In this document: piece after piece, positions 2,653 through 22,905 of the stretch
Layout of the letters: each line of letters opens with the position of its first letter
Position numbering within the stretch: the first letter of the stretch is position 1
From: a virus
Lineage: Duplodnaviria; Heunggongvirae; Uroviricota; Caudoviricetes
Direction: 5' to 3' (one strand)
Length of the DNA stretch: 34,170 nt
IMG/VR virus record: IMGVR_UViG_2706796290_000001
Span: 1-34,170 of that record
Made by a program: the position numbers and the translations under genes
Notes under the pieces: generated by a model
The model's input: the letters and a program-made list of their open reading frames with translations, nothing else
Database searches by the model: none
What the model was told of the DNA's origin: nothing

Positions 2653-3033
2653 TTAAATATCATACCGAACTCTAATTATCTCACGCTTATCAAGATCTGT
2701 CAAGATACCATAAGCATAACAATTATTCTGTATGTAATTGTCAACAGTTTGAATATTGAAGGATACCCACCTTGGTGACTTACCCTCACTAATTGTACAC
2801 AATAAGCAACTACCATTTCGTATGTGTAGAACAGTCAACATTCCTTCAATACTAACCATCCAGTGTGTAGCAGATTCTAAGTGCTCTTTACGACCCACAA
2901 ATGTTCGAACAACAGATGAATGGACACTTTTCATCTGAATGGCACCTAGAAAGCTGTTGTGCATGACTAATCTAGGTTTCCCACACTGGTATTGACCATT
3001 GTTATAGCTAGTTACACCCTTTAAAGCCATCAT
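2653..3033 (-). CDS. hypothetical protein, about 126 aa
   Basis: Start moved to MMALKG (ATGA overlap with the upstream stop, GGGGTGG SD); an internal start at MKSVH is also possible. Confidence 0.6.
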   Translation of the reverse strand: MMALKGVTSYNNGQYQCGKPRLVMHNSFLGAIQMKSVHSSVVRTFVGRKEHLESATHWMVSIEGMLTVLHIRNGSCLLCTISEGKSPRWVSFNIQTVDNYIQNNCYAYGILTDLDKREIIRVRYDI

Positions 3034-3478: not shown

Positions 3479-3775
3479 TTAATGTTTATGTATGAAGTTT
3501 AAATCACCTAGATTTTTAATGCAAGCATCAATTGTAGCTTGTACACGCTTGTCTAAGGCTTCTAAATCATTTAAGTCACTAGATATTACCTCCATGAACT
3601 TAACACGCTCTAAACAAGCCTTAACAGTCGAGAAATAACCTATAGGTGTTCTTCGAATTTCACCCTCTTGCTTTCCACTTTTTGCAATACTTAAGCTGTA
3701 CAAGATGAAATTCATATCATCCGAACCTAAAGCATAACCTACTTGATCTTTTGTAGGTTCTTTTAACACCTTCAT
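3479..3775 (-). CDS. hypothetical protein, 98 aa
   Basis: AAGGAG SD; operon packing. Confidence 0.75.
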   Translation of the reverse strand: MKVLKEPTKDQVGYALGSDDMNFILYSLSIAKSGKQEGEIRRTPIGYFSTVKACLERVKFMEVISSDLNDLEALDKRVQATIDACIKNLGDLNFIHKH

Positions 3776-3820
3776 CTTACTCTCCTTGTAAAAATCTTTC
3801 AGGCAGTTGATATGGAATCA

Positions 3821-4192
3821 TTATAAACCTCCAAGGTGTCCTGATTTATGAATTAATTCTGATACAAAACCTTTCAACTCTTCCGATACCTGACCAGACT
3901 CTAATCTCTTCTTATAAGAAACCTCAAGGTCAGAAATAGTGACTCTATGTAAATCTTTATACACTGTGTCATGTTCTCCATAATAACCATACCACAATCT
4001 ACAAGCATATACTATAAAGAAATCTACATCTGTTTTTTTAGATATCTCAACATTGTTTCCATCTCTTGGTTGCGCCCACTTCCAACCAAGACCATGAATT
4101 AATGCAAGTATGTAAAGCTTTTCACTAGGTTTCATACCCTGAACAACAATTAATTGATCATCATTCACACAACTTCTCCCAACAAGAATCAA
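3821..4192 (-). CDS. hypothetical protein, 123 aa
   Basis: ORF in the leftward operon. Confidence 0.65.
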   Translation of the reverse strand: MILVGRSCVNDDQLIVVQGMKPSEKLYILALIHGLGWKWAQPRDGNNVEISKKTDVDFFIVYACRLWYGYYGEHDTVYKDLHRVTISDLEVSYKKRLESGQVSEELKGFVSELIHKSGHLGGL

Positions 4193-6191: not shown

Positions 6192-6572
6192 TTATTTATA
6201 ATTAACTTTAGTTACTTCAACCTTTTCAATATCGCCACCAGCACCATGAGTGTAGAAATCACTAATGGTAACAGCGAGTTGCACAATATCCGAAAGTTTT
6301 CCTTGATATACACCAAGTTTTGGACGATGGTGATAACCACCAAAATCACAGTTTGGGTCCTCTCCATACACAGTCCACAAACCTTCTTCATCCAGAGAGT
6401 GCTTCTTTAACAACCTTTTCCCAGCATAACTACCAAGCCAACCTTTTGCTTTCTTGTCATGCTTATACTTCTCAGATTCCTCATATCTAAGAGCTTCTTC
6501 AGGCGTGCTAAACTCTTTACCATCATCTGCAACATAAATAGTTTTAACGTGCATTTTATCCTCACTAATCAA
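6192..6572 (-). CDS. phage protein with YxxxDGKxFxTxEEA motif, 126 aa
   Basis: N-terminal YVADDGKEFSTPEEALRYE pattern common in phage hypotheticals. Confidence 0.7.
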   Translation of the reverse strand: MISEDKMHVKTIYVADDGKEFSTPEEALRYEESEKYKHDKKAKGWLGSYAGKRLLKKHSLDEEGLWTVYGEDPNCDFGGYHHRPKLGVYQGKLSDIVQLAVTISDFYTHGAGGDIEKVEVTKVNYK

Positions 6573-6582
6573 TATCTTTCAA

Positions 6583-7809
6583 CTAATCTTTGTTTAACCA
6601 ATCTCTAAACAAACTATACATACGTTTTGATGCTATTGCAAGCACAATTTTCTCACCTTTACGTATTCTTGAACGCCAAACCCATTGAAGCATCTCCGAC
6701 AAGGCAAAAACCTCACGGGAAATCGGATATCCATAATCTTGGAGGTATGACTCCACACTAACCATCGGGTAACGATCATAACAGTGCACTAAAACTGACT
6801 TGTCAGCATAATCATTAGTTGCTCTTGTCTGAACAGGTAACCAACAGTAACTCCAAGAGCCATCGTTACTTCTTTTACGGTAATAACCTTTTGGTTTAAC
6901 TAAGTTTTTACTTCCAACATGTCTTTCTTTTGGTATTGTGTACATTAAATCATCTGGTGTGGCTTTATACTTCATGGCAACACTTCTAATGTATTTACCA
7001 ACCACATCAAGTTGAGCCTGACTAGCTCTTTTATACCAACTACTTGACAAACCAGTGGAAATTGACAAGTCAGCCCTAGGTTCAACCAATTCAATTAAAT
7101 CACGAATGGTGTCTTTAGATGTCTTCGTTACCTCAATTTCTCTAAAAGGTTTAGATTCAACACCCTTCAACCTTAAGAAACGATCTAAAATGTTACCTTC
7201 AAACATATAAGTGAGGATAACCACCCTTTTAGCCACTGTCATTAACCTGATAGGTAGTTGAGTCACCATCATTAAATTACTTCTCTTGGCAACATAAAGG
7301 CACTGACTATCACAATACTGCTTCAACATGTAATATTTATGAGCTTTCCCAACTGGCTGGTCGCACACCCAAGATAGCATACCATCATGTGGATCTACTG
7401 AAACTTTCTCATTCGAGTACAACCACTTATAATCATCTATGGAATACTTATCAAAACCTTCGATAACATTGATCTCCTCGTCAATCACAACGGTGTAGCC
7501 ATGATATTCAACAAGGTCTAAGTGCTCGTTGGTCAGGGACATGTACAGGCTATGCGTACAAGCAATATTTTCACCATTACTTAGAAGTTCAAGTAAGTGC
7601 TCCGATTTAGTATCATGATCTTCAGTGGTTGGGTAGGAGAATGATATACGGCTAACCGCTTGGGATAACCTTCCACCATCACCCACCTCAGAGAGTAAAG
7701 GAGAAACATAAATATATTTCTCTTCATGGTACTTTTCCATCCACTTAATAATTCCAGTGGTTTTATGTGAACCCATAATAGAATCAAGAACTTCAATTAC
7801 CTCAGCCAT
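6583..7809 (-). CDS. SF2 helicase-like P-loop protein, 408 aa (possible origin-binding protein)
   Basis: Walker A-like LDSIMGSHKTT, Walker B VVIDEE, C-terminal QWVWRSRIR resembling SF2 motif VI. Confidence 0.7.
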   Translation of the reverse strand: MAEVIEVLDSIMGSHKTTGIIKWMEKYHEEKYIYVSPLLSEVGDGGRLSQAVSRISFSYPTTEDHDTKSEHLLELLSNGENIACTHSLYMSLTNEHLDLVEYHGYTVVIDEEINVIEGFDKYSIDDYKWLYSNEKVSVDPHDGMLSWVCDQPVGKAHKYYMLKQYCDSQCLYVAKRSNLMMVTQLPIRLMTVAKRVVILTYMFEGNILDRFLRLKGVESKPFREIEVTKTSKDTIRDLIELVEPRADLSISTGLSSSWYKRASQAQLDVVGKYIRSVAMKYKATPDDLMYTIPKERHVGSKNLVKPKGYYRKRSNDGSWSYCWLPVQTRATNDYADKSVLVHCYDRYPMVSVESYLQDYGYPISREVFALSEMLQWVWRSRIRKGEKIVLAIASKRMYSLFRDWLNKD

Positions 7810-15331: not shown

Positions 15332-15847
15332 ATGTCACAGGAACGTGAAGACTTAGAAGTTTCTTCTCAAGATACTCCAATTGGCTCTGAGTTAATGACT
15401 AATGCTCAGAAAAAACTTAAAGAAGCCCAAAAGAAAAGAGTATCTTTAGAAAAAATTATTGCTTTAACAGACGATGCTATGATTGACTCTATTCAGTACA
15501 TGCACCAAACAGTAAATAATCCTAAAGTAAGTCCAAATGCTCGTGTTGTTTGTGCGAATAACTTGGTTGCAATCAACCTTAAAGCTAAAAAACAACTTAC
15601 AGAAGAGAAAATGGCTGAACAAATGTACAGACACAAGGAACTTGTTATCCGTGCTGAAGCTATGAAGATTGCCCAATTGTCTGGTATAGGTCAAGAAGGT
15701 GGAGGATATGCTTCAGAAAGAACTGGGACTTTACAGTTAGAGTATGTAGAGAATCCAGAATATGCCGATGTTCCTACAGACCCAACATTAGCTGATGGAT
15801 ACGTTCCTGAATCTGGTGAAGGTCTGGGTGAGTATGAGATAAATTAA
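15332..15847 (+). CDS. helical protein, 171 aa; possible terminase small subunit
   Basis: AAGGAG SD; size, helical character and acidic tail; TerS call rests on position only. Confidence 0.4.
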   Translation: MSQEREDLEVSSQDTPIGSELMTNAQKKLKEAQKKRVSLEKIIALTDDAMIDSIQYMHQTVNNPKVSPNARVVCANNLVAINLKAKKQLTEEKMAEQMYRHKELVIRAEAMKIAQLSGIGQEGGGYASERTGTLQLEYVENPEYADVPTDPTLADGYVPESGEGLGEYEIN

Positions 15848-15930
15848 CCTTATTTTGTACAATAAATATACAACTAAGTAATATTTTTATGGTTTTTATG
15901 AAAAATTTATGAAAATATCAAATTTAGGTG

Positions 15931-15958
15931 TTGACAATGTATAAAAATCTGGTAATCT
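15931..15958 (+). promoter_or_regulatory. promoter of the tRNA array
   Basis: TTGACA-N16-TAATCT with TGn, about 90 nt before tRNA-Tyr. Confidence 0.8.
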
Positions 15959-16050
15959 TAAATACATAGCGCTGATAAACATATTGATTATTTGTTTTTC
16001 ATAGTTATGTCCTTATCGGTAACCAAGAGTAAAAGCCCTCTTGGTTATTT

Positions 16051-16136
16051 GGGTGATGTTGGGGTGTTGGTCAACCCCATCAGACTGTAAATCTGACGTG
16101 AAAGCTGTCTAGGTTCGAATCCTAGATCACCCACCA
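16051..16136 (+). tRNA. tRNA-Tyr(GTA)
   Basis: GGGTGAT/ATCACCC acceptor, TCAGA/TCTGA anticodon stem, variable arm, CCA. Confidence 0.93.
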
Positions 16137-16139
16137 AAT

Positions 16140-16214
16140 AGTACCTTAGTTCAGGGGTAGAACGCAGAACTGATAATTCTGAGGTCGATGGTTCGAAACC
16201 ATCAGGTACTACCA
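16140..16214 (+). tRNA. tRNA-Ile(GAT)
   Basis: Canonical cloverleaf, CCA. Confidence 0.95.
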
Positions 16215-16243
16215 ATTTAAAAGTTTTTAAAAGTTTATTCAGG

Positions 16244-16315
16244 TCTAGTGTAGCACAACGGTAGTGCAGCAGACTGTTAATCTGTTGGTTGTTGGTTCGA
16301 ATCCAGCCTCTAGAG
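16244..16315 (+). tRNA. tRNA-Asn(GTT), CCA not encoded (CCT)
   Basis: Cloverleaf with G73; U6xU67 mismatch. Confidence 0.88.
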
Positions 16316-16317
16316 CC

Positions 16318-17028
16318 TGAGTAAATTAAGAATTACCCTTCGGGGTATGGGTCGTGTATAACCCTTAGATAAACTGCAAAACAGTATAAAGTCGTAACGG
16401 CAGTTATGGCGCAGAGTAAAAATCTGTCAAGTACACACTCAAGGTATCATACTTATGTGGCGTAGAGCCAATCGGTGTAAACCATTTAAGTATGGGGGTG
16501 TAATGCTCCTGAGTCGATAGGCAATAAGAGAACTTGAAGGTATCTAGCGAAGTTGATTGTCAAGTCAAAACGCTGTTTACCATTGTGAGAGGTATATAGA
16601 GTTTAACAGGTGGTGCTGAATCTCGTAGTCCTAAACCAAGTGGACAATATATGCTTGAAACATCGTGCATGGTAAAGCACATTAGGTAGTGTGGTATTGA
16701 TGGGTTCAAAAGATCTGTTAGCCACAGAGAAACCACTATCTATGCAATACAAATTTCATTTTAGGAAAAAATTAAATTCAAAAGTGTTTCTCACGTTGGC
16801 ATGAAAGGTGCTTACATAGTAATGGGTTGTCCATTGCACATTTAACCTGAAAGGTTATTTGTATTTTCATGAAAGGATTATGTTTGGTAGGCATACTAGC
16901 ATAGTTTGAGTATTGGGAGAGTAGTTCCAACGTCTAAGAGTGGTTAGCTATACTGACCAGCACTGATCACTACTATATAAAGTATAGTGGATAATGAGGG
17001 AAAAGATAATCCTCTCAAGGTGGTCATT
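16318..17028 (+). ncRNA. large (~700 nt) structured non-coding RNA, GOLLD/ROOL-like candidate
   Basis: No ORF; at least 15 hairpins or long-range stems visible by eye; sits between tRNA-Asn and tRNA-Asp; family not confirmed. Confidence 0.7.
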
Positions 17029-17057
17029 TAAACGTGTAATCTCAGCGTTTTACTTGT

Positions 17058-17133
17058 GGCTCTGTAGCATAGTGGATTATGCGCCTCCCTGTCTAGGAGA
17101 AAAACGCCAGTTCGAGTCTGGTCAGAGTCGCCA
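17058..17133 (+). tRNA. tRNA-Asp(GTC)
   Basis: Cloverleaf, G73, CCA; unusual U37. Confidence 0.92.
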
Positions 17134-17137
17134 GTAT

Positions 17138-17212
17138 TGTCGTATAGTGTAATGGTTAGCACAGAAGACTTTGACTCTTCTAGTTTAGGTTCGAGTCCTA
17201 ATTCGACTACCA
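17138..17212 (+). tRNA. tRNA-Gln(TTG)
   Basis: Cloverleaf, CCA; U1xU72 and U6xU67 mismatches; A73. Confidence 0.88.
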
Positions 17213-17215
17213 AAT

Positions 17216-17291
17216 GGGTCACTAGCACAATGGTAGTGCAGTTGCTTTGCAAGCATCAGGTTAAGGGTTCGAGTCCCTTGTGTATCCACCA
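17216..17291 (+). tRNA. tRNA-Ala(TGC)
   Basis: G3.U70 identity pair; one bulged U in the 3' acceptor strand; CCA. Confidence 0.87.
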
Positions 17292-17293
17292 AT

Positions 17294-17368
17294 ATTCCAT
17301 TCGACTAGCGGTTAGGTCGCTTCCCTTTCAAGGAAGTAGCACGAGTTCGAATCTCGTATGGAATACCA
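17294..17368 (+). tRNA. tRNA-Glu(TTC)
   Basis: Canonical cloverleaf, CCA. Confidence 0.95.
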
Positions 17369-17370
17369 AT

Positions 17371-17447
17371 AGGACGTTAGCTCAGTTGGTTAGAGCAAGA
17401 GCCTTTTAAGTTCGAGGTCATAGGTTCAAATCCTATACGTCCTACCA
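17371..17447 (+). tRNA. tRNA-Lys(TTT)
   Basis: Cloverleaf, CCA; C31-G39 pair. Confidence 0.95.
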
Positions 17448-17452
17448 ACAAT

Positions 17453-17527
17453 GGTGACTTTGGTGTAATGGTTTGCATCACTCCCTGTGAAGGAGAAGGT
17501 CAGGGTTCAAATCCCGAAGTCACACCA
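17453..17527 (+). tRNA. tRNA-His(GTG)
   Basis: Encoded G-1, A73, bulged T-stem, CCA. Confidence 0.87.
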
Positions 17528-17540
17528 AGAATTTTAAGAA

Positions 17541-17674
17541 TTTCAAACGAGTAGAGGTACAGTCCTGAAAGTTTGAAAGTGGGGCGACACCTGCCTGAAG
17601 TAGTAGCTAATAATGGCCTGTTAGTGAATCTAAGTGGTGTGACTTAACTGACTTGGAGAGAAAGGTCGGGGCAG
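17541..17674 (+). ncRNA. structured inter-tRNA RNA (hairpin domain plus four-way junction)
   Basis: TTTCAAAC/GTTTGAAA stem; CTGCCT/GGGCAG stem enclosing three hairpins. Confidence 0.45.
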
Positions 17675-17675
17675 A

Positions 17676-17750
17676 GCACAAGTAGCTGAGATGGATTAGC
17701 GCTACCCTGAAGAGGTTGAGAGGTTGGATCGTTACCAACATTGTGCACCA
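17676..17750 (+). tRNA. tRNA-Phe(GAA)
   Basis: Cloverleaf, CCA; T-loop ATCGTTA and G37 are non-canonical. Confidence 0.85.
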
Positions 17751-17778
17751 AATTTTTAAAAGAAGAATTATTTTAGGA

Positions 17779-17854
17779 TTACCATAACCTAAAGGCTCGA
17801 AGGGGCGGTCTGCAACATCGTTGTTGGTGAGTTGAAGTCTCACATGGTAATCCA
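17779..17854 (+). tRNA. tRNA-Cys(GCA)
   Basis: U73 identity base, CCA; T-loop TTGAAGT. Confidence 0.87.
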
Positions 17855-17867
17855 AAGTGATTTTTAT

Positions 17868-17955
17868 AGAGGTTAAACCAGATAGGTTCTGGGACACCCT
17901 GCTAAGGTGATCGTGTTAGAAATAGCATTCGGATCGAGACCGATGGCCTCTGCCA
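17868..17955 (+). tRNA. tRNA-Ser(GCT)
   Basis: Long variable arm with GAAA loop, G73, CCA; T-loop ATCGAGA. Confidence 0.88.
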
Positions 17956-17957
17956 AA

Positions 17958-18225
17958 TTTGTTGTGCGCTCCACAGGTTGATCCTGTTACGGTTATCCTC
18001 AAGACCAGACCGCAACAAAGCAACATCAATGGCTTGTCTAAAGTAACGCTGTTGATGGGGCAAATGCAGACACCGATTCGCCTCTGACCTAGTTAAGCAC
18101 ACTAATCGGTTTTTTCTTAGGGCTATTGGACAGGTAATTACCCCTCCTTTAGTTACGACAAGATATCTTCGTGGCTCGCTACCTTGAAGGCATCCCAGTT
18201 AGGGTTCTGGTTAAAAACTCACTAC
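17958..18225 (+). ncRNA. structured ORF-less inter-tRNA segment
   Basis: Three-way junction 17958-18019, 10-bp hairpin 18024-18057, terminator-like stem 18072-18116. Confidence 0.4.
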
Positions 18226-18301
18226 AGTCCCTTAGCTCAATCGGGAGAGCAACACTCTTACAAGGTGAAGGTAGTAGGTTCGAAACCTACAGGGACTACC
18301 A
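18226..18301 (+). tRNA. tRNA-Val(TAC)
   Basis: Canonical cloverleaf, CCA. Confidence 0.95.
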
Positions 18302-18302
18302 A

Positions 18303-18391
18303 GGTGGGTAGCGTCAAGGTGACAAAGCGGGCTTGAACCCCGTGCCAATTGTGATGAGCAGTTGAGAGTTCGATTCTTTTACCCATCGCCA
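18303..18391 (+). tRNA. tRNA-Ser(TGA) with 8/4 acceptor/T-stem fold
   Basis: GGTGGGTA/TACCCATC 8 bp, AGAG/CTTT 4 bp, 7-bp variable arm, G73, CCA. Confidence 0.82.
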
Positions 18392-18392
18392 A

Positions 18393-18466
18393 GCGTTTAT
18401 AGTGTAGTGGTAACACCCTGTACTTCCAATTCAGTATCTTCGGTTCGAATCCGAATAGACGCTCCA
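18393..18466 (+). tRNA. tRNA-Gly(TCC)
   Basis: Cloverleaf, U73, CCA. Confidence 0.95.
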
Positions 18467-18478
18467 GATTATGTTTAT

Positions 18479-18601
18479 GGACACTTCCTAAGGTTCTTTC
18501 TACAGGTTCGAAACTGTTTTAAGAATTGCTGGTGCTAGGTTTAGCGTCAAGAATCATTCGAAGGGTTCTTGGGGTGGTGAGTTCGATTCTCACAGTGTTC
18601 C
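18479..18601 (+). ncRNA. tRNA-like RNA (acceptor stem and T-arm intact; D and anticodon arms replaced by three hairpins; no CCA)
   Basis: GGACACT/AGTGTTC stem; GTGAG-TTCGATT-CTCAC T-arm; 123 nt. Confidence 0.6.
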
Positions 18602-18619
18602 CCCTATTTTAAAGTTTAT

Positions 18620-18696
18620 CTCTGTGTAGCTCAGTTTGGTAGAGCACTCGCTTTGGGAGTGAGGGGTCGTAAGTTCAATTCTTACTACAGAGACCA
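18620..18696 (+). tRNA. tRNA-Pro(TGG)
   Basis: C1-G72, A73, CCA. Confidence 0.95.
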
Positions 18697-18698
18697 GT

Positions 18699-18776
18699 TA
18701 TGAAGTGTTTGTACAGCTATCAGCTCACCGTTTAAAGGATACGGACAAGTCGGCTCGACTAAAGACTCACTTCATA
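18699..18776 (+). ncRNA. 78-nt multibranch inter-tRNA RNA
   Basis: TATGAAGTG/CACTTCATA 9-bp closing stem with internal hairpins. Confidence 0.45.
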
Positions 18777-18783
18777 TGTTTTT

Positions 18784-18860
18784 GGGTAGTTGAAGGGAAT
18801 GGCATACCTTTCACGCTTAGAACGTGAAGTTTCTGAGTTCGAGTCTCAGACTACCTACCA
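18784..18860 (+). tRNA. tRNA-Leu(TAG), short variable loop
   Basis: Cloverleaf, A73, CCA; 5-nt variable loop. Confidence 0.87.
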
Positions 18861-18866
18861 AATTCT

Positions 18867-18942
18867 GGGGATATAGCCCAACGGCAGAGGCAAGAGGTTT
18901 AAACCCTCTCAAGTTTCAGTTCGAATCTGAATATCCCTACCA
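18867..18942 (+). tRNA. tRNA-Leu(TAA), short variable loop
   Basis: Cloverleaf, A73, CCA; 5-nt variable loop. Confidence 0.9.
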
Positions 18943-18957
18943 GTTTAGGAGTGCTAC

Positions 18958-19239
18958 ATGGAAGTATTACTTGTTAGTGATTGTAGATGCCAAGAGCGTT
19001 ATGACTTTGCAGATATTGTAAAGGATGCTCAAGAACAAGGTATCAAAATTAAGTACACATTAGTTCCTAAGAAGATATCCTATGAAGATAGAACTTACAC
19101 ATTTGTTAATGTTGAAGATCTCACTAAGGATAAAAGTTGTATTGTTGGTAAGAAGTTTGATGATGTCTATTTGACACCAGAAGCTAAAGATGCTATACCT
19201 TTAGGGTTGCTATCATTTATACTTACAAGAATACGTTAA
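18958..19239 (+). CDS. hypothetical protein inside the tRNA array, 93 aa
   Basis: TAGGAG SD; fills the gap between tRNA-Leu and the Arg-like RNA. Confidence 0.72.
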   Translation: MEVLLVSDCRCQERYDFADIVKDAQEQGIKIKYTLVPKKISYEDRTYTFVNVEDLTKDKSCIVGKKFDDVYLTPEAKDAIPLGLLSFILTRIR

Positions 19240-19246
19240 GTTTTAA

Positions 19247-19334
19247 GTCCCTACACCCTCCAAGAGCCTTCTAAGCTCTCGACATTAAATAGGGGGAAGG
19301 TAGTCAGAGTGTTCGATTCACTGTGGGGACTCCA
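19247..19334 (+). tRNA. atypical tRNA-Arg(TCT) lacking a D-arm
   Basis: 7-bp acceptor, AGAGC-CTTCTAA-GCTCT arm, T-arm TTCGATT, CCA; only a 9-nt linker where the D-arm should be. Confidence 0.65.
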
Positions 19335-19335
19335 A

Positions 19336-19411
19336 GCCGAATTAGCTCAGTTGGTAGAGCAGCGCACTTGTAATGCGAAGGTCGTAGACTCGGATTCTAC
19401 ATTCGGCACCA
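19336..19411 (+). tRNA. tRNA-Thr(TGT)
   Basis: Cloverleaf, CCA; T-loop CTCGGAT. Confidence 0.9.
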
Positions 19412-19417
19412 TATTTA

Positions 19418-19507
19418 GGTCGTGTAGCTTAAAGAAAGCAAGAGGATTTATAAACCTTTTCACTAGATAAGTGCTTGATGTGGGGGCAGTACCCACCACG
19501 ACTACCA
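19418..19507 (+). tRNA. atypical tRNA with TAT anticodon (nominally Ile) and long variable arm
   Basis: 7-bp acceptor, A73, CCA; D-loop AAAGA lacks GG; T-loop GGCAGTA; CACT/AGTG variable arm. Confidence 0.65.
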
Positions 19508-19509
19508 AT

Positions 19510-19579
19510 AAGTCCCCCTCTGGGAGGGAAGAGGTCTCCAAAACCACTTAGCTGTGTTCGATTCACAGGGGATTTGCCA
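19510..19579 (+). tRNA. compact tRNA-Trp(CCA)
   Basis: 70 nt; G73, CCA; 3-nt D-loop, extended anticodon stem, 2-nt variable loop. Confidence 0.72.
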
Positions 19580-19729
19580 AATTAGATTAAGATGTTGGTG
19601 CGTGACAACCTTAATCGGCATGATTTTAGTTTATGTCGATGTGATAAACATGGCTAGATAGATATGTCGATAAAAACTAGAAATTAAAACACGTAGTATT
19701 GAAATGTTAAAAATAATTAAACAAAACAC

Positions 19730-19761
19730 TTGACAAATAGATTTTTAGTGTTATATATAAT
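19730..19761 (+). promoter_or_regulatory. promoter upstream of tRNA-CAT/thioredoxin
   Basis: TTGACA at 19730 followed after 16 nt by TGn-TATATATAAT; the exact -10 register is ambiguous. Confidence 0.6.
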
Positions 19762-19783
19762 ATATAAGCAATTAAGTTTTCAT

Positions 19784-19858
19784 AGCGAGGTAGTGTAACG
19801 GTTTGCACAGGGGACTCATAATCCTCTGGTTTGGGTTCGAATCCCAACTTCGCTTCCA
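19784..19858 (+). tRNA. tRNA with CAT anticodon (Met; Ile2 not excluded)
   Basis: Cloverleaf, CCA; A1-U72 and U73; lacks the three consecutive anticodon-stem G-C pairs of initiators. Confidence 0.88.
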
Positions 19859-19878
19859 GTTTCGGAGGATCAATTATC

Positions 19879-20193
19879 GTGTATTTAGAACTAGTAGAAA
19901 ATGAAGCATTTAGCCAGATTGGTACAAACCGAAAGGTTATCTTCAAATTTGGTGCAAAATGGTGCTCTGGTTGTAAAGCGATAACTCCAGTCCTCAAAAA
20001 ATTATCTGAACAAAATCCTGATATTGTCTTTGTAGATATCGATATTGAGCAATCGAAAGGACTAGCTGAAAGATTTAATGTTCAGACCTTACCAACTTTC
20101 ATATCTTTCCAAGAGTCCTTAAAGAAGGATACCATTGTAGGTACTCCTAAAATTACTCAGTTGAAAGAAATGATCACAAATATGCAAAAATAA
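19879..20193 (+). CDS. trx: thioredoxin, 104 aa
   Basis: WCSGC active site, FNVQTLPTF cis-Pro motif; GTG start after GGAGG (track start lies inside the tRNA). Confidence 0.9.
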   Translation: MYLELVENEAFSQIGTNRKVIFKFGAKWCSGCKAITPVLKKLSEQNPDIVFVDIDIEQSKGLAERFNVQTLPTFISFQESLKKDTIVGTPKITQLKEMITNMQK

Positions 20194-20344
20194 TAAAGAT
20201 AAGCAAACACGTTTCTAAAACCTTTAGTTTAAGGTTTTTCTCCAACCCCACTAACCAAATAACTGTTATGGATGACACAAGTCAATAATAGGGAATAATT
20301 AAGGTTAGTGGGTTTTCTTATTTATAATGACATTTCGTGTAGAT

Positions 20345-20411
20345 TTAAGAGGTGGTGCTTACTTGTCCTAGGCATCACCCCTTAAGTTATCAACATAGAG
20401 GACAAGCTATG
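20345..20411 (+). promoter_or_regulatory. SD-sequestering RNA pseudoknot in the HNH leader
   Basis: 17-position stem 20345-61/20369-85 with one mismatch; loop CTTGTCC complementary to GGACAAG at 20400-06. Confidence 0.7.
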
Positions 20412-20903
20412 GAAGAAATTTGGAAGCCTGTTGAAGGTTTTGGTGGCTATGAAGTTAGTGATTTGGGTCGTGTACGTAAGGTTGACGGAACTATTGTTAA
20501 TCTATTCAACCATCCGCAAGGATACCTAAAAGTAGCCCTTAAGGTTGCTGGCCAAAAGGTTAGTAAGAAGTACGTGCATAGGCTTGTAGCTGCTGCATTT
20601 ATACCTAACCCAGACAACCTTCCTTATGTAAATCATAAGAATGGCAAGCAGTGGTGTAATGAGGTTGATAACCTTGAGTGGATATCCTCTAAAGATAACC
20701 ATACACATGCTCGTGAGACTGGTCTTATTGACTATTACAAGTCACACCGAGTAGTTTCTGTCGAGGATGTACGATACATACGTAAGCATATAAAACCTTA
20801 CGATAAAGAATTCGGTAATGGTGCTATTGCAAAGCGATTGGGCTTAAGCCGAGACCAAGTTACTGACATTGCCCTGTACCGGAATTACAAAGACGTGATA
20901 TAG
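20409..20903 (+). CDS. free-standing NUMOD4-HNH homing endonuclease (I-HmuI-like), 164 aa
   Basis: EEIWKPV...YEVSDLGRVR (NUMOD4); VHRLVAAAF...VNHKNG...NLEW (HNH); ATG after GAGGA. Confidence 0.9.
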   Translation: MEEIWKPVEGFGGYEVSDLGRVRKVDGTIVNLFNHPQGYLKVALKVAGQKVSKKYVHRLVAAAFIPNPDNLPYVNHKNGKQWCNEVDNLEWISSKDNHTHARETGLIDYYKSHRVVSVEDVRYIRKHIKPYDKEFGNGAIAKRLGLSRDQVTDIALYRNYKDVI

Positions 20904-20912
20904 GAGGTATTA

Positions 20913-22905
20913 ATGTCGAATATATTTGCACCGTGTAGTCCAGTGCAAGCAAAGTTACTGCAAAGTGATGCAACAATTACAGTTTATGGTGGGTGAATAT
21001 AGGCTCCTTTAAGTAGTAATACTTATCGAATAACCTTGTGAAATGCTGGAAACCCCTTAGAGCCTTGAGTACCGAAGTGTAACAACCTTAAGGATTGGGC
21101 AATCAGCAGGGAAGCCTCTTATTAGAGGAACCCTCAACGACTATCGAAAGGGTAACGAACCGAGTAGAGTAGGGGCAAGTGTCCCGAAGTGCAAGGCACC
21201 TCAAGTAGGTGAAGATATAGTCTGGACTCATGGGAAACCTTGAGCATGCAATTGGCTAATGTGCTGTTGCATGGGTTGGCTCTAACGAAGCCTTCTTAAC
21301 ACAATCACTATGGGGTCTGCGAAAACCTATGGAGGTCTACTAAGACACCTTCAATATGTAAATAGTCCTCATTATGTTGGGTGAAAATACATGCCCCTTT
21401 AAGTGGTGACACTTATCGAATAACCCCTCTAATTGCTGGGAACCCTCTTTGAGGCAATCAGCAGCCAAGCCCAGCAGGGAAGGTTCAACGACTATTCCGA
21501 CAGGAAGTACACTCAAGTGAGTGGAAACGGGGGGCATCTCGCAGAGATGATGATATAGTCTGATCTACATGGTGACATGTAGCAAGGTTAAAACCTTGGA
21601 GTTAGCTTAACGAGCTAACACTAACAAAATGATGTTATCCGTAAAAATGAAGTAGTTCTGAGGGCTGGTGGTGGTGCTTTTGAAGAAGCCAAAGCTTTAT
21701 ACAAGGCATTTGAGCCGAGAGTTAAAATCACAGAGAAACCTATGAGGTTTCGCTTTCCTTCTGGTGCTGTAATTAACTTTGCAGGTGCTGAAGATGAGAA
21801 AGCTATGGAAAAATATCGTGGTCTTAACTTGACTGGCGTGATGGTCGATGAAGGTACACAGTTATCAGAAAGACAAATTTGGTTCTTGATCTCTCGTTTG
21901 CGTAACGGTAAAGATCCAAACATTATGCCAAATATATGGATTACATGTAACCCTGACCCTGATAGTTATTTGTTTGAATGGGTTAAGTGGTATTTATATC
22001 CTGTAGGGCATCCTCTTGCTGGAAGACCTGATAAAGATAAGAATGGATTAAAAAGATATTTCGTATCGACTCCAGAAGGTTTAGTTTGGAGTGATAATGA
22101 ACAGGAATTACTTGATAAGTATCCGCATTTATTTACAAAAGGGACTAGACCACTAAGCTTTAGATTTATTGGTGGTACAGTTTACGATAACCCACCTCTT
22201 CTTAAGAACTCACCTCAATATCTTCAAAACCTACTCCAACAGAAAGACCGAGTAGTGCGAGAACGTGAGTTGTACGGCAACTGGTTTGCACGTAGGGAAG
22301 ATTCAAGTTACTTCAACAGGTCTTGGTGTGAGATAGTTGATAAGCCTCCTGAAAGGGTCCGTAAAAGGGTTCGTTCTTGGGACTTGGCTTTCACATTACC
22401 AACTGAGACAAACCCAAACCCCGATTATACCTGTGGTGTTCGTCTGAGTAAAGATGATGAAGGTACAATCTATGTTGAAGACATGGTTCTTGAAAGGGTT
22501 GGTTCTGGGCAAATTATTGAGTTAATTGCAAAGACTGGTCTAGAAGATGCTGAGATGTTTGGTGTTGTTGAAACAACAATCCCTCAAGATGCTGGTGGTA
22601 TGGCTAAATTTGCAGCTAGGGATATGGCCTCTAAGCTAAGAGAGCATGGTGTATCTCCTATTGTAGTTCCTGTAGGTAATAAAGGCAAGCTCGTTCGTTT
22701 TATTCCATTCTCAGGTGCAGCACAAAATAAACATGTGAAGATTGTACGTGGTGATTGGAATGCAGCCTTCTTTCATCAGTTAGAAGCTTTTGGAAGTGGA
22801 AATAAGGCTGTGCACGATGATGCTGTCGATGCTGTTGCTGATGCTTATAAAAGAGTAGCAGAAAATAGAACGATTGACTATGCCATCGACTTAGCAGTTT
22901 TATAA
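20913..22905 (+). CDS. terL: terminase large subunit, join(20913..20994,21308..21382,21632..22905), 476 aa after splicing
   Basis: Splicing restores Walker A VYGGSMGSAKT; Walker B VMVDEG, TCNPD coupling motif, RuvC-like RSWDLA and HDDAVDA. Confidence 0.93.
20995..21307 (+). mobile_element. group I intron 1 (IA2-like, ORF-less, 313 nt, terminal A)
   Basis: P AAATGCTGGAAA 21041, Q AATCAGCAGG 21101, R TCAACGACTA 21134, S AAGATATAGTCT 21212; U.G at the 5' splice site. Confidence 0.92.
21383..21631 (+). mobile_element. group I intron 2 (IA2-like, ORF-less, 249 nt, terminal G)
   Basis: P AATTGCTGGGAA 21431, Q AATCAGCAG 21456, R TCAACGACTA 21485, S ATGATATAGTCT 21550; omega-G 21631; P10 UACAU region pairs with exon AUGU. 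Confidence 0.94.

Follow-up and report, generated by a model that had tools for sequence, protein, structure and literature searches.

Among GOLLD RNAs, cage assembly is known only for env-38, which forms a hollow homo-oligomer made of RNA only, resolved by cryo-EM as a 14-mer, in which the loops L21a and L21b make the bridges B8 and B9 that join the half-shells (PMC12286853); its linker is disordered and points into the cage (PMC12286853). The Rfam GOLLD model covers only the universally conserved 3′ region of the family, whereas the 5′ region is less conserved (PMC12286853), with 5′ domains reported to vary across the family (PMC12286853). GOLLD RNA reportedly increases in abundance during lysis and brings down ribosomes in pull-downs (PMC12286853, PMC7567579), and the GOLLD of a Lactobacillus brevis prophage is reported to be dispensable for phage production (PMC7567579).

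Here, we compare with these systems a locus in a 34,170-nt stretch (below, the window) that opens a virus record of 98,170 nt. Two tRNA genes enclose 740 nt (window positions 16318-17057, structured on the plus strand) which we read, with a probability of about 0.93, as one complete two-domain GOLLD RNA of ~720-740 nt, carried by an AM24-like lytic Acinetobacter baumannii phage. Its 5′ domain spans ~16345-16681 and its 3′ domain 16682-17050, with a linker at 16744-16790.

Genomic setting

The tRNA array enclosing GOLLD comprises 17 tRNA genes by ARAGORN, all on the plus strand. Directly 5′ of the stretch stands tRNA-Asn(GTT) (16244-16317, plus strand; ARAGORN, Rfam tRNA 66.3 bits), while tRNA-Asp(GTC) (17058-17133, plus strand; ARAGORN and Rfam) is the first of six tightly spaced downstream tRNAs. 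The first-pass annotation had remarked that the CCA of tRNA-Asn is not encoded, and a comparison of 3′ ends agrees: it is the sole member of the 17 without a complete encoded CCA, reading G-CC-T, so that CC is encoded and a T stands in place of the A. The GC content of the stretch is that of the rest of the window.

Over the stretch, nucleotide identity to the A. baumannii phages Ab15, Herod, Bestia and AM24 is ~98-99%, and the whole-length similarity to the copy in A. johnsonii phage vB_AciJM_313 is 69.9%. Comparison of related phages placed the homologs of AM24 (GOLLD score 214.7 bits) and vB_AciJM_313 (207.2 bits) within the tRNA arrays of their own genomes. Identical coordinates in a published alignment indicate that the phage carrying this GOLLD is YMC13/03/R2096, which infects A. 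baumannii lytically, is AM24-like and has no lysogeny genes (PMC6444642); the earlier assignment to a lytic gammaproteobacterial phage fits this family, which is lytic, AM24-like and associated with Acinetobacter (PMC6444642).

Several further features of the array and its surroundings were observed. A tRNA at 17676-17747 (Rfam 38.6 bits; anticodon loop GAA, Phe) was missed by ARAGORN, and relatives annotate a tRNA-Phe at the homologous place. Between this tRNA-Phe and tRNA-Val lies a second ORF-poor stretch of the array, ~475 nt long (17751-18225), which folds with a z of -2.85, has no Rfam match and contains a core (17824-17958, ~135 nt) that shares ~70% identity with DNA of Pseudomonas PAK_P1-like phages for which no annotation exists; this stretch is a possible further structured RNA. 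A weak tRNA match at 19418-19504 (Rfam 32.3 bits) was not called by ARAGORN. Two group I introns (20975-21244 and 21360-21582; Rfam 78.8 and 96.6 bits) are followed just downstream by a 387-codon ORF, and the corresponding place in Ab15 is an uninterrupted terminase large-subunit gene. In vB_AciJM_313, an unannotated tRNA-like sequence lies directly 3′ of that phage's GOLLD (~3745-3835 of locus sequence L002); its anticodon loop reads GTT, its T arm is normal and it ends in CCA, but its D region is odd, and neither the record nor Rfam calls it.

Family assignment and the conserved 3′ domain

The whole window was scanned against all 4,227 Rfam families, and the neighbourhood 15800-22000 at E up to 1. 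The GOLLD model (RF02032, gathering score 150) matched 16682-17048 on the plus strand with 217.6 bits (E 1.7e-60). The match runs through the complete model (positions 1-416 of 416), lies 68 bits above the cut-off, forms nearly all consensus pairs with few non-canonical ones, and represents the only GOLLD copy in the 98-kb genome. The models of ROOL, tmRNA and RNase P RNA, examined beside that of GOLLD, found no match in 15800-22000 at E up to 1 and none in the whole window at gathering score; ARAGORN likewise called no tmRNA, and no other non-tRNA Rfam family matched the GOLLD stretch at E up to 1.

The first-pass annotation had offered two readings of this stretch, a GOLLD-like RNA or a new giant RNA class. 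The former is upheld by the full RF02032 match together with the usual GOLLD 5′ domain upstream of it. The latter, a giant phage RNA unrelated to GOLLD or ROOL, could draw on a 5′ half that has no Rfam model of its own, but it is refuted: the 217.6-bit match covers the full model, the 5′ half can be aligned with many GOLLD 5′ domains and looks like the beginning of env-38 as printed, and a published alignment of GOLLD already includes this locus. The first-pass annotation had foreseen that a strong GOLLD hit would mean a class that is not new. The alignment in question (Supplementary File 3 of Kretsch et al. 2025, PMC12286853) contains the rows NC_027332.1:16682-17048 and KM672662.1:16682-17048, Acinetobacter phage YMC13/03/R2096, and also rows for phages Bestia, Herod and P577. 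Since the published row coordinates are those of the Rfam match, the locus has already been catalogued as GOLLD. The finding is real and already known, within a family described since 2009 and with a structure solved in 2025; a literature search for GOLLD and Acinetobacter found no relevant main-text mention.

All elements of the 3′ domain lie on the plus strand. It opens with a branched first stem (16682-16743; Rfam model positions 1-62 in the cmscan alignment), in which 7 of the 9 pairs of 16682-90/16735-43 and 12 of the 14 pairs of 16691-706/16712-25 covary among 38 homologs. This is followed by a variable A/U-rich linker (16744-16790), unpaired in the Rfam consensus and, at 47 nt, shorter than the median of 69.5. 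Most differences that distinguish close relatives and a metatranscriptome variant fall in this linker, which has no tRNA inserted within it. The conserved core (16791-17050), supported by the 217.6-bit Rfam alignment and by covariation, includes a long-range, pseudoknot-type helix (16793-16802/16924-33) with covariation among the 38 homologs at all ten pairs, nine of which are formed in the window; P21 (16876-16906), with a single hairpin inside (loop GGCA, 16890-93); and a terminal hairpin (17030-36/17043-50) that is intact and bears the near-invariant loop GUAAUCUCAG.

The 5′ domain

Because RF02032 is restricted to the 3′ region, the 364 nt upstream of 16682 needed a separate test. A pattern of two invariant 3′-domain motifs retrieved at least 119 GOLLD loci from IMG/VR, and these were searched with an nhmmer profile built from the Acinetobacter 5′ half in three iterations. 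The profile matched 57 of the at least 119 loci, 51 of them near-completely, and every match adjoins the 3′ domain directly on its upstream side. In the window, the GOLLD 5′ domain supported by the nhmmer matches and by RNAalifold on 38 sequences occupies 16348-16681 (plus strand); its opening motifs are those at the printed start of env-38, as matched by eye.

Covariation among homologs supports the fold in both domains, as counted from compensatory changes by RNAalifold in an alignment of 38 non-redundant GOLLD sequences. For the 5′ domain, 54 pairs are predicted, 41 of them with a compensatory change in at least one sequence; the full-length consensus fold has ~39 helices, most with several covarying pairs. 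Between the window and vB_AciJM_313, 23 pairs have changed on both sides and 19 on one side while remaining paired. At the very 5′ end, a hairpin with a UUCG tetraloop (16334-16347, plus strand; perfect 5-bp stem) is kept in vB_AciJM_313 with one compensatory and one G-U change, and UUCG or UACG hairpins occupy the same place in several IMG/VR homologs; the env-38 construct used for cryo-EM begins downstream of the position of this hairpin.

The nhmmer homology and the compensatory pairs of the 5′ half thus argue that the whole interval is a single two-domain GOLLD. Were GOLLD limited to 16682-17048, then 16318-16681 would be an unrelated spacer or a separate RNA, as might be read from the Rfam model, which ends at 16682, and from the published alignment row, which likewise covers 16682-17048 only. 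That model is, however, limited by design to the conserved 3′ region (PMC12286853), whereas near-complete 5′-domain homology in 51 loci always lies directly upstream of the 3′ domain, the 5′ helices are supported by covariation, and a single 728-nt RNA-library contig spans both halves, all of which makes a GOLLD confined to 16682-17048 highly improbable.

Secondary structure and coding potential

The six helices quoted by the first-pass annotation all lie where it had placed them, three as perfect complements and three with a G-U pair or a bulge. The UUCG hairpin described above is one of them. Helices 16448-55/16487-94 and 16941-47/16953-59 agree with the covariation-supported fold. Helix 16683-95/16732-42 survives in part, since its outer eight pairs stand while the consensus pairs the inner residues 16691-95 with 16721-25. 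Two of the six conflict with the conserved fold as predicted from the alignment: the nine-pair helix 16746-54/16857-65 has one arm in the variable linker and suffers uncompensated breaks in AM24 and in the metatranscriptome variant, and 16913-18/16925-30 competes with 16865-69/16914-18 and 16793-16802/16924-33, both of which covary among 38 homologs.

The description of the stretch as ORF-less and highly pairable holds. No credible ORF is present in 16318-17057, where the longest stop-free runs are 42 codons on the plus and 59 codons on the minus strand, and the plus strand folds at -205.2 kcal/mol (z -3.0; equalled by none of 20 shuffles) against -154.5 kcal/mol for the minus strand. The annotation of phage Ab15 nevertheless implies that small proteins are encoded here, and minus-strand ORFs of 58 and 50 codons are indeed present; its GenBank record PP763259 lists two such 'hypothetical protein' CDS on the minus strand over GOLLD (6243-6419 and 6461-6613 of locus sequence L001). 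In vB_AciJM_313, however, the ORFs differ in position and length and reach 52 codons at most, and the substitutions between that phage and the window preserve base pairs, not frames; moreover, nothing is annotated at this place in four other phage records, and the plus strand folds far better than the minus strand. A coding role is therefore barely credible, and the hypothetical CDS of Ab15 over GOLLD are almost certainly spurious.

Representation in RNA libraries

Four public runs, chosen because they contain the GOLLD stretch, were examined over 9 kb around it. In a sludge metatranscriptome, one assembled 728-nt contig corresponds to 16345-17062 at a depth of 21, reaching at least 5 nt into the downstream tRNA-Asp. 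In a second run of the same sludge study, two contigs cover 16351-17043, and a run of another study, whose kind we guessed to be RNA, yielded three contigs over 16343-16998. Across the 9 kb, protein genes on either side have almost no cover, with only two short pieces at depths of 2-3. No weight was given to run X17 (one 203-nt piece, depth 2.2), to parts without cover, or to tRNA-sized, high-depth pieces near 19340-19385 that come from other organisms. With moderate confidence, given assembled contigs from preselected runs, this pattern is what a stable and abundant GOLLD RNA would give.

Predicted transcription and processing

GOLLD would be co-transcribed with the phage tRNA array, probably, judging from position, from a promoter near 15931-15958. 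The candidate sigma-70 promoter there (plus strand; a perfect TTGACA, a 16-nt spacer and TG-n-TAATCT) was picked out by eye; the consensus promoter scan did not list it, promoter-like sites being no commoner than chance, and the promoter and terminator scan of the plus strand near GOLLD returned nothing above chance. As tRNAs stand directly on both flanks of GOLLD, host tRNA-processing enzymes probably excise it.

At the upstream side, a leader from tRNA-Asn to the first hairpin (16318-16333, plus strand) was delimited by alignment with AM24, in which 49 extra nt separate tRNA-Asn from the GOLLD 5′ hairpin (2947-3000 of locus sequence L003), an insertion that is absent from the window and from Ab15. 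This insertion suggests that 16318-16333 probably lies outside the functional core and that the functional 5′ end falls at or after ~16323-16334. The 5′ end would arise from 3′ maturation of the CCA-less tRNA-Asn, combined with trimming back to the UUCG hairpin.

At the downstream side, a short trailer (17051-17057, plus strand; position read from the sequence) precedes tRNA-Asp. A tRNA starts 11-17 nt after the terminal-loop motif GTAATCTCAG in 10 of 120 GOLLD loci, at 13 nt here, and 18-25 nt after it in none of the 120. A spacing of 11-17 nt fits a GOLLD 3′ end made by RNase P, and a cut by this enzyme at 17057/17058, the 5′ end of tRNA-Asp, is quite likely to produce it. In the 36 homologs that share the 5′ domain type, no tRNA lies within 900 nt upstream, so an abutting upstream tRNA is particular to this phage group rather than a rule of the family.

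A compact form and its possible assembly

At ~735 nt, this GOLLD copy is compact. Its 5′ domain, counted from 16345 to 16695, is 351 nt long. In 31 homologs this domain spans 403-443 nt, and in five others, which form a divergent group, it is similarly short. Three hairpins of most homologs are absent, between 16520/16521, near 16604-16622 and between 16881/16883. The last of these gaps lies in P21, where only one of the self-kissing hairpins L21a and L21b is present: the remaining hairpin (16883-16900, loop GGCA) corresponds to the second hairpin of two-hairpin relatives. In an alignment-based count over 100 unique GOLLD 3′ domains, the P21 interior measures 49-52 nt in ~74, against 32 nt here, and single-hairpin forms make up ~11-20, so that a single-hairpin P21 is a variant within the GOLLD family and does not exclude the RNA from it.

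The missing first P21 hairpin would be L21a, which makes bridge B8, according to our own mapping, which draws on the text of PMC12286853 and on env-38 as printed there; residue numbers are approximate, since the printed sequence is ~17 nt shorter than the stated 833 nt. Searching the retrieved IMG/VR GOLLD loci for env-38 itself with a 23-nt word gave no match. Other single-hairpin P21 variants in IMG/VR (loci L013, L098, L037 and L050) have four-base loop palindromes (GGCC, GATC, CTAG), and in such palindromic variants a longer self-kissing contact may replace two short ones.

A shorter RNA with three hairpins gone could also be the decaying remnant of a GOLLD that no longer functions and travels with the tRNA array, the more so as GOLLD is reported to be dispensable in one prophage (PMC7567579). 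Decay sits poorly, however, with a score far above the cut-off and few non-canonical pairs, with 23 compensatory changes relative to the phage of another Acinetobacter species, with retention of the compact form in both lineages, and with abundance relative to neighbouring genes in RNA libraries, and a relic is accordingly very unlikely.

The structure of env-38 offers a model of assembly. By homology, copies would assemble into a hollow homo-oligomeric shell of RNA alone, its cap built of 5′ domains and its ring of 3′ domains; kissing loops and A-minor contacts would hold the shell together, and the A/U-rich linker would face the lumen. We lean towards the Acinetobacter-phage GOLLD forming a closed cage on this basis, while assembly of exactly 14 copies, likewise extrapolated from env-38, is somewhat doubtful. 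With peripheral hairpins missing, stoichiometry, or even cage closure, may differ from env-38.

A bolder proposal, which we consider unlikely as a whole, is that the Acinetobacter-phage GOLLDs constitute a compact ~735-nt subtype, lacking P21a/L21a and two 5′ hairpins, that assembles differently from env-38 and has its ends set purely by tRNA processing, with no promoter or terminator of its own. Such a subtype might differ in copy number, be weaker at its equator or stop at an open half-shell and, if it were real, would offer a small system, in culture and amenable to genetics, in which the function of GOLLD cages could be studied.

Practical significance and possible role

In the GenBank records of related phages, GOLLD is left blank or called protein-coding; records of Acinetobacter phages that are therapeutic candidates leave it unannotated or mis-annotate it as two hypothetical proteins. 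With a lytic carrier phage in culture and a host for it in the laboratory, knock-out and end-mapping of this GOLLD are feasible, and a naturally trimmed copy could reveal which cage contacts are dispensable. As to function, placement among tRNAs and the reported pull-down of ribosomes incline us, tentatively and at odds well below even, to a role late in infection that is tied to tRNAs or ribosomes, for example in holding or shielding them. The dispensability of the L. brevis GOLLD implies that any role may be conditional.

Comparison with known systems

ROOL, which forms an 8-mer nanocage, is likewise a large phage-associated RNA that often lies near tRNAs and builds a cage of RNA only; its sequence and fold are unrelated to GOLLD, and the window has no ROOL match at E up to 1. 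In Lactobacillus brevis ATCC 367, the prophage GOLLD (Weinberg et al. 2009, cited in PMC12286853 and PMC7567579) is similarly phage-borne and is reported to accumulate in the lytic cycle. It belongs to a temperate Firmicute prophage, whereas the Acinetobacter copy resides in a virulent, myovirus-like genome without lysogeny genes (PMC6444642).

With env-38, from a marine metagenome and solved by cryo-EM as a D7-symmetric 14-mer (Kretsch et al. 2025, PMC12286853), the Acinetobacter copy has the two-domain plan in common. The two are alike in their 5′ opening motifs (by eye), their 3′ helices and the GUAAUCUCAG terminal loop, in having a variable linker that follows the opening stem of the 3′ domain, and in adjoining a tRNA. 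In contrast to env-38, the Acinetobacter copy is ~100 nt shorter, has three peripheral hairpins fewer and a shorter linker (47 nt), lacks the first P21 hairpin (the one mapped to L21a/B8) and carries an extra 5′ UUCG hairpin; its host is a cultured gammaproteobacterial phage.

A parallel in genomic setting is the GOLLD of mycobacterial tRNA clusters that have spread by horizontal transfer (PMC6582537). That RNA resides in bacterial chromosomes and has a pseudo-tRNA within its linker, whereas the Acinetobacter phage copy is free of a pseudo-tRNA. Both are nonetheless embedded in a large tRNA cluster with HNH endonuclease genes, and in the mycobacterial clusters (PMC6582537) and the Acinetobacter phage alike, tRNAs stand on both sides of GOLLD.
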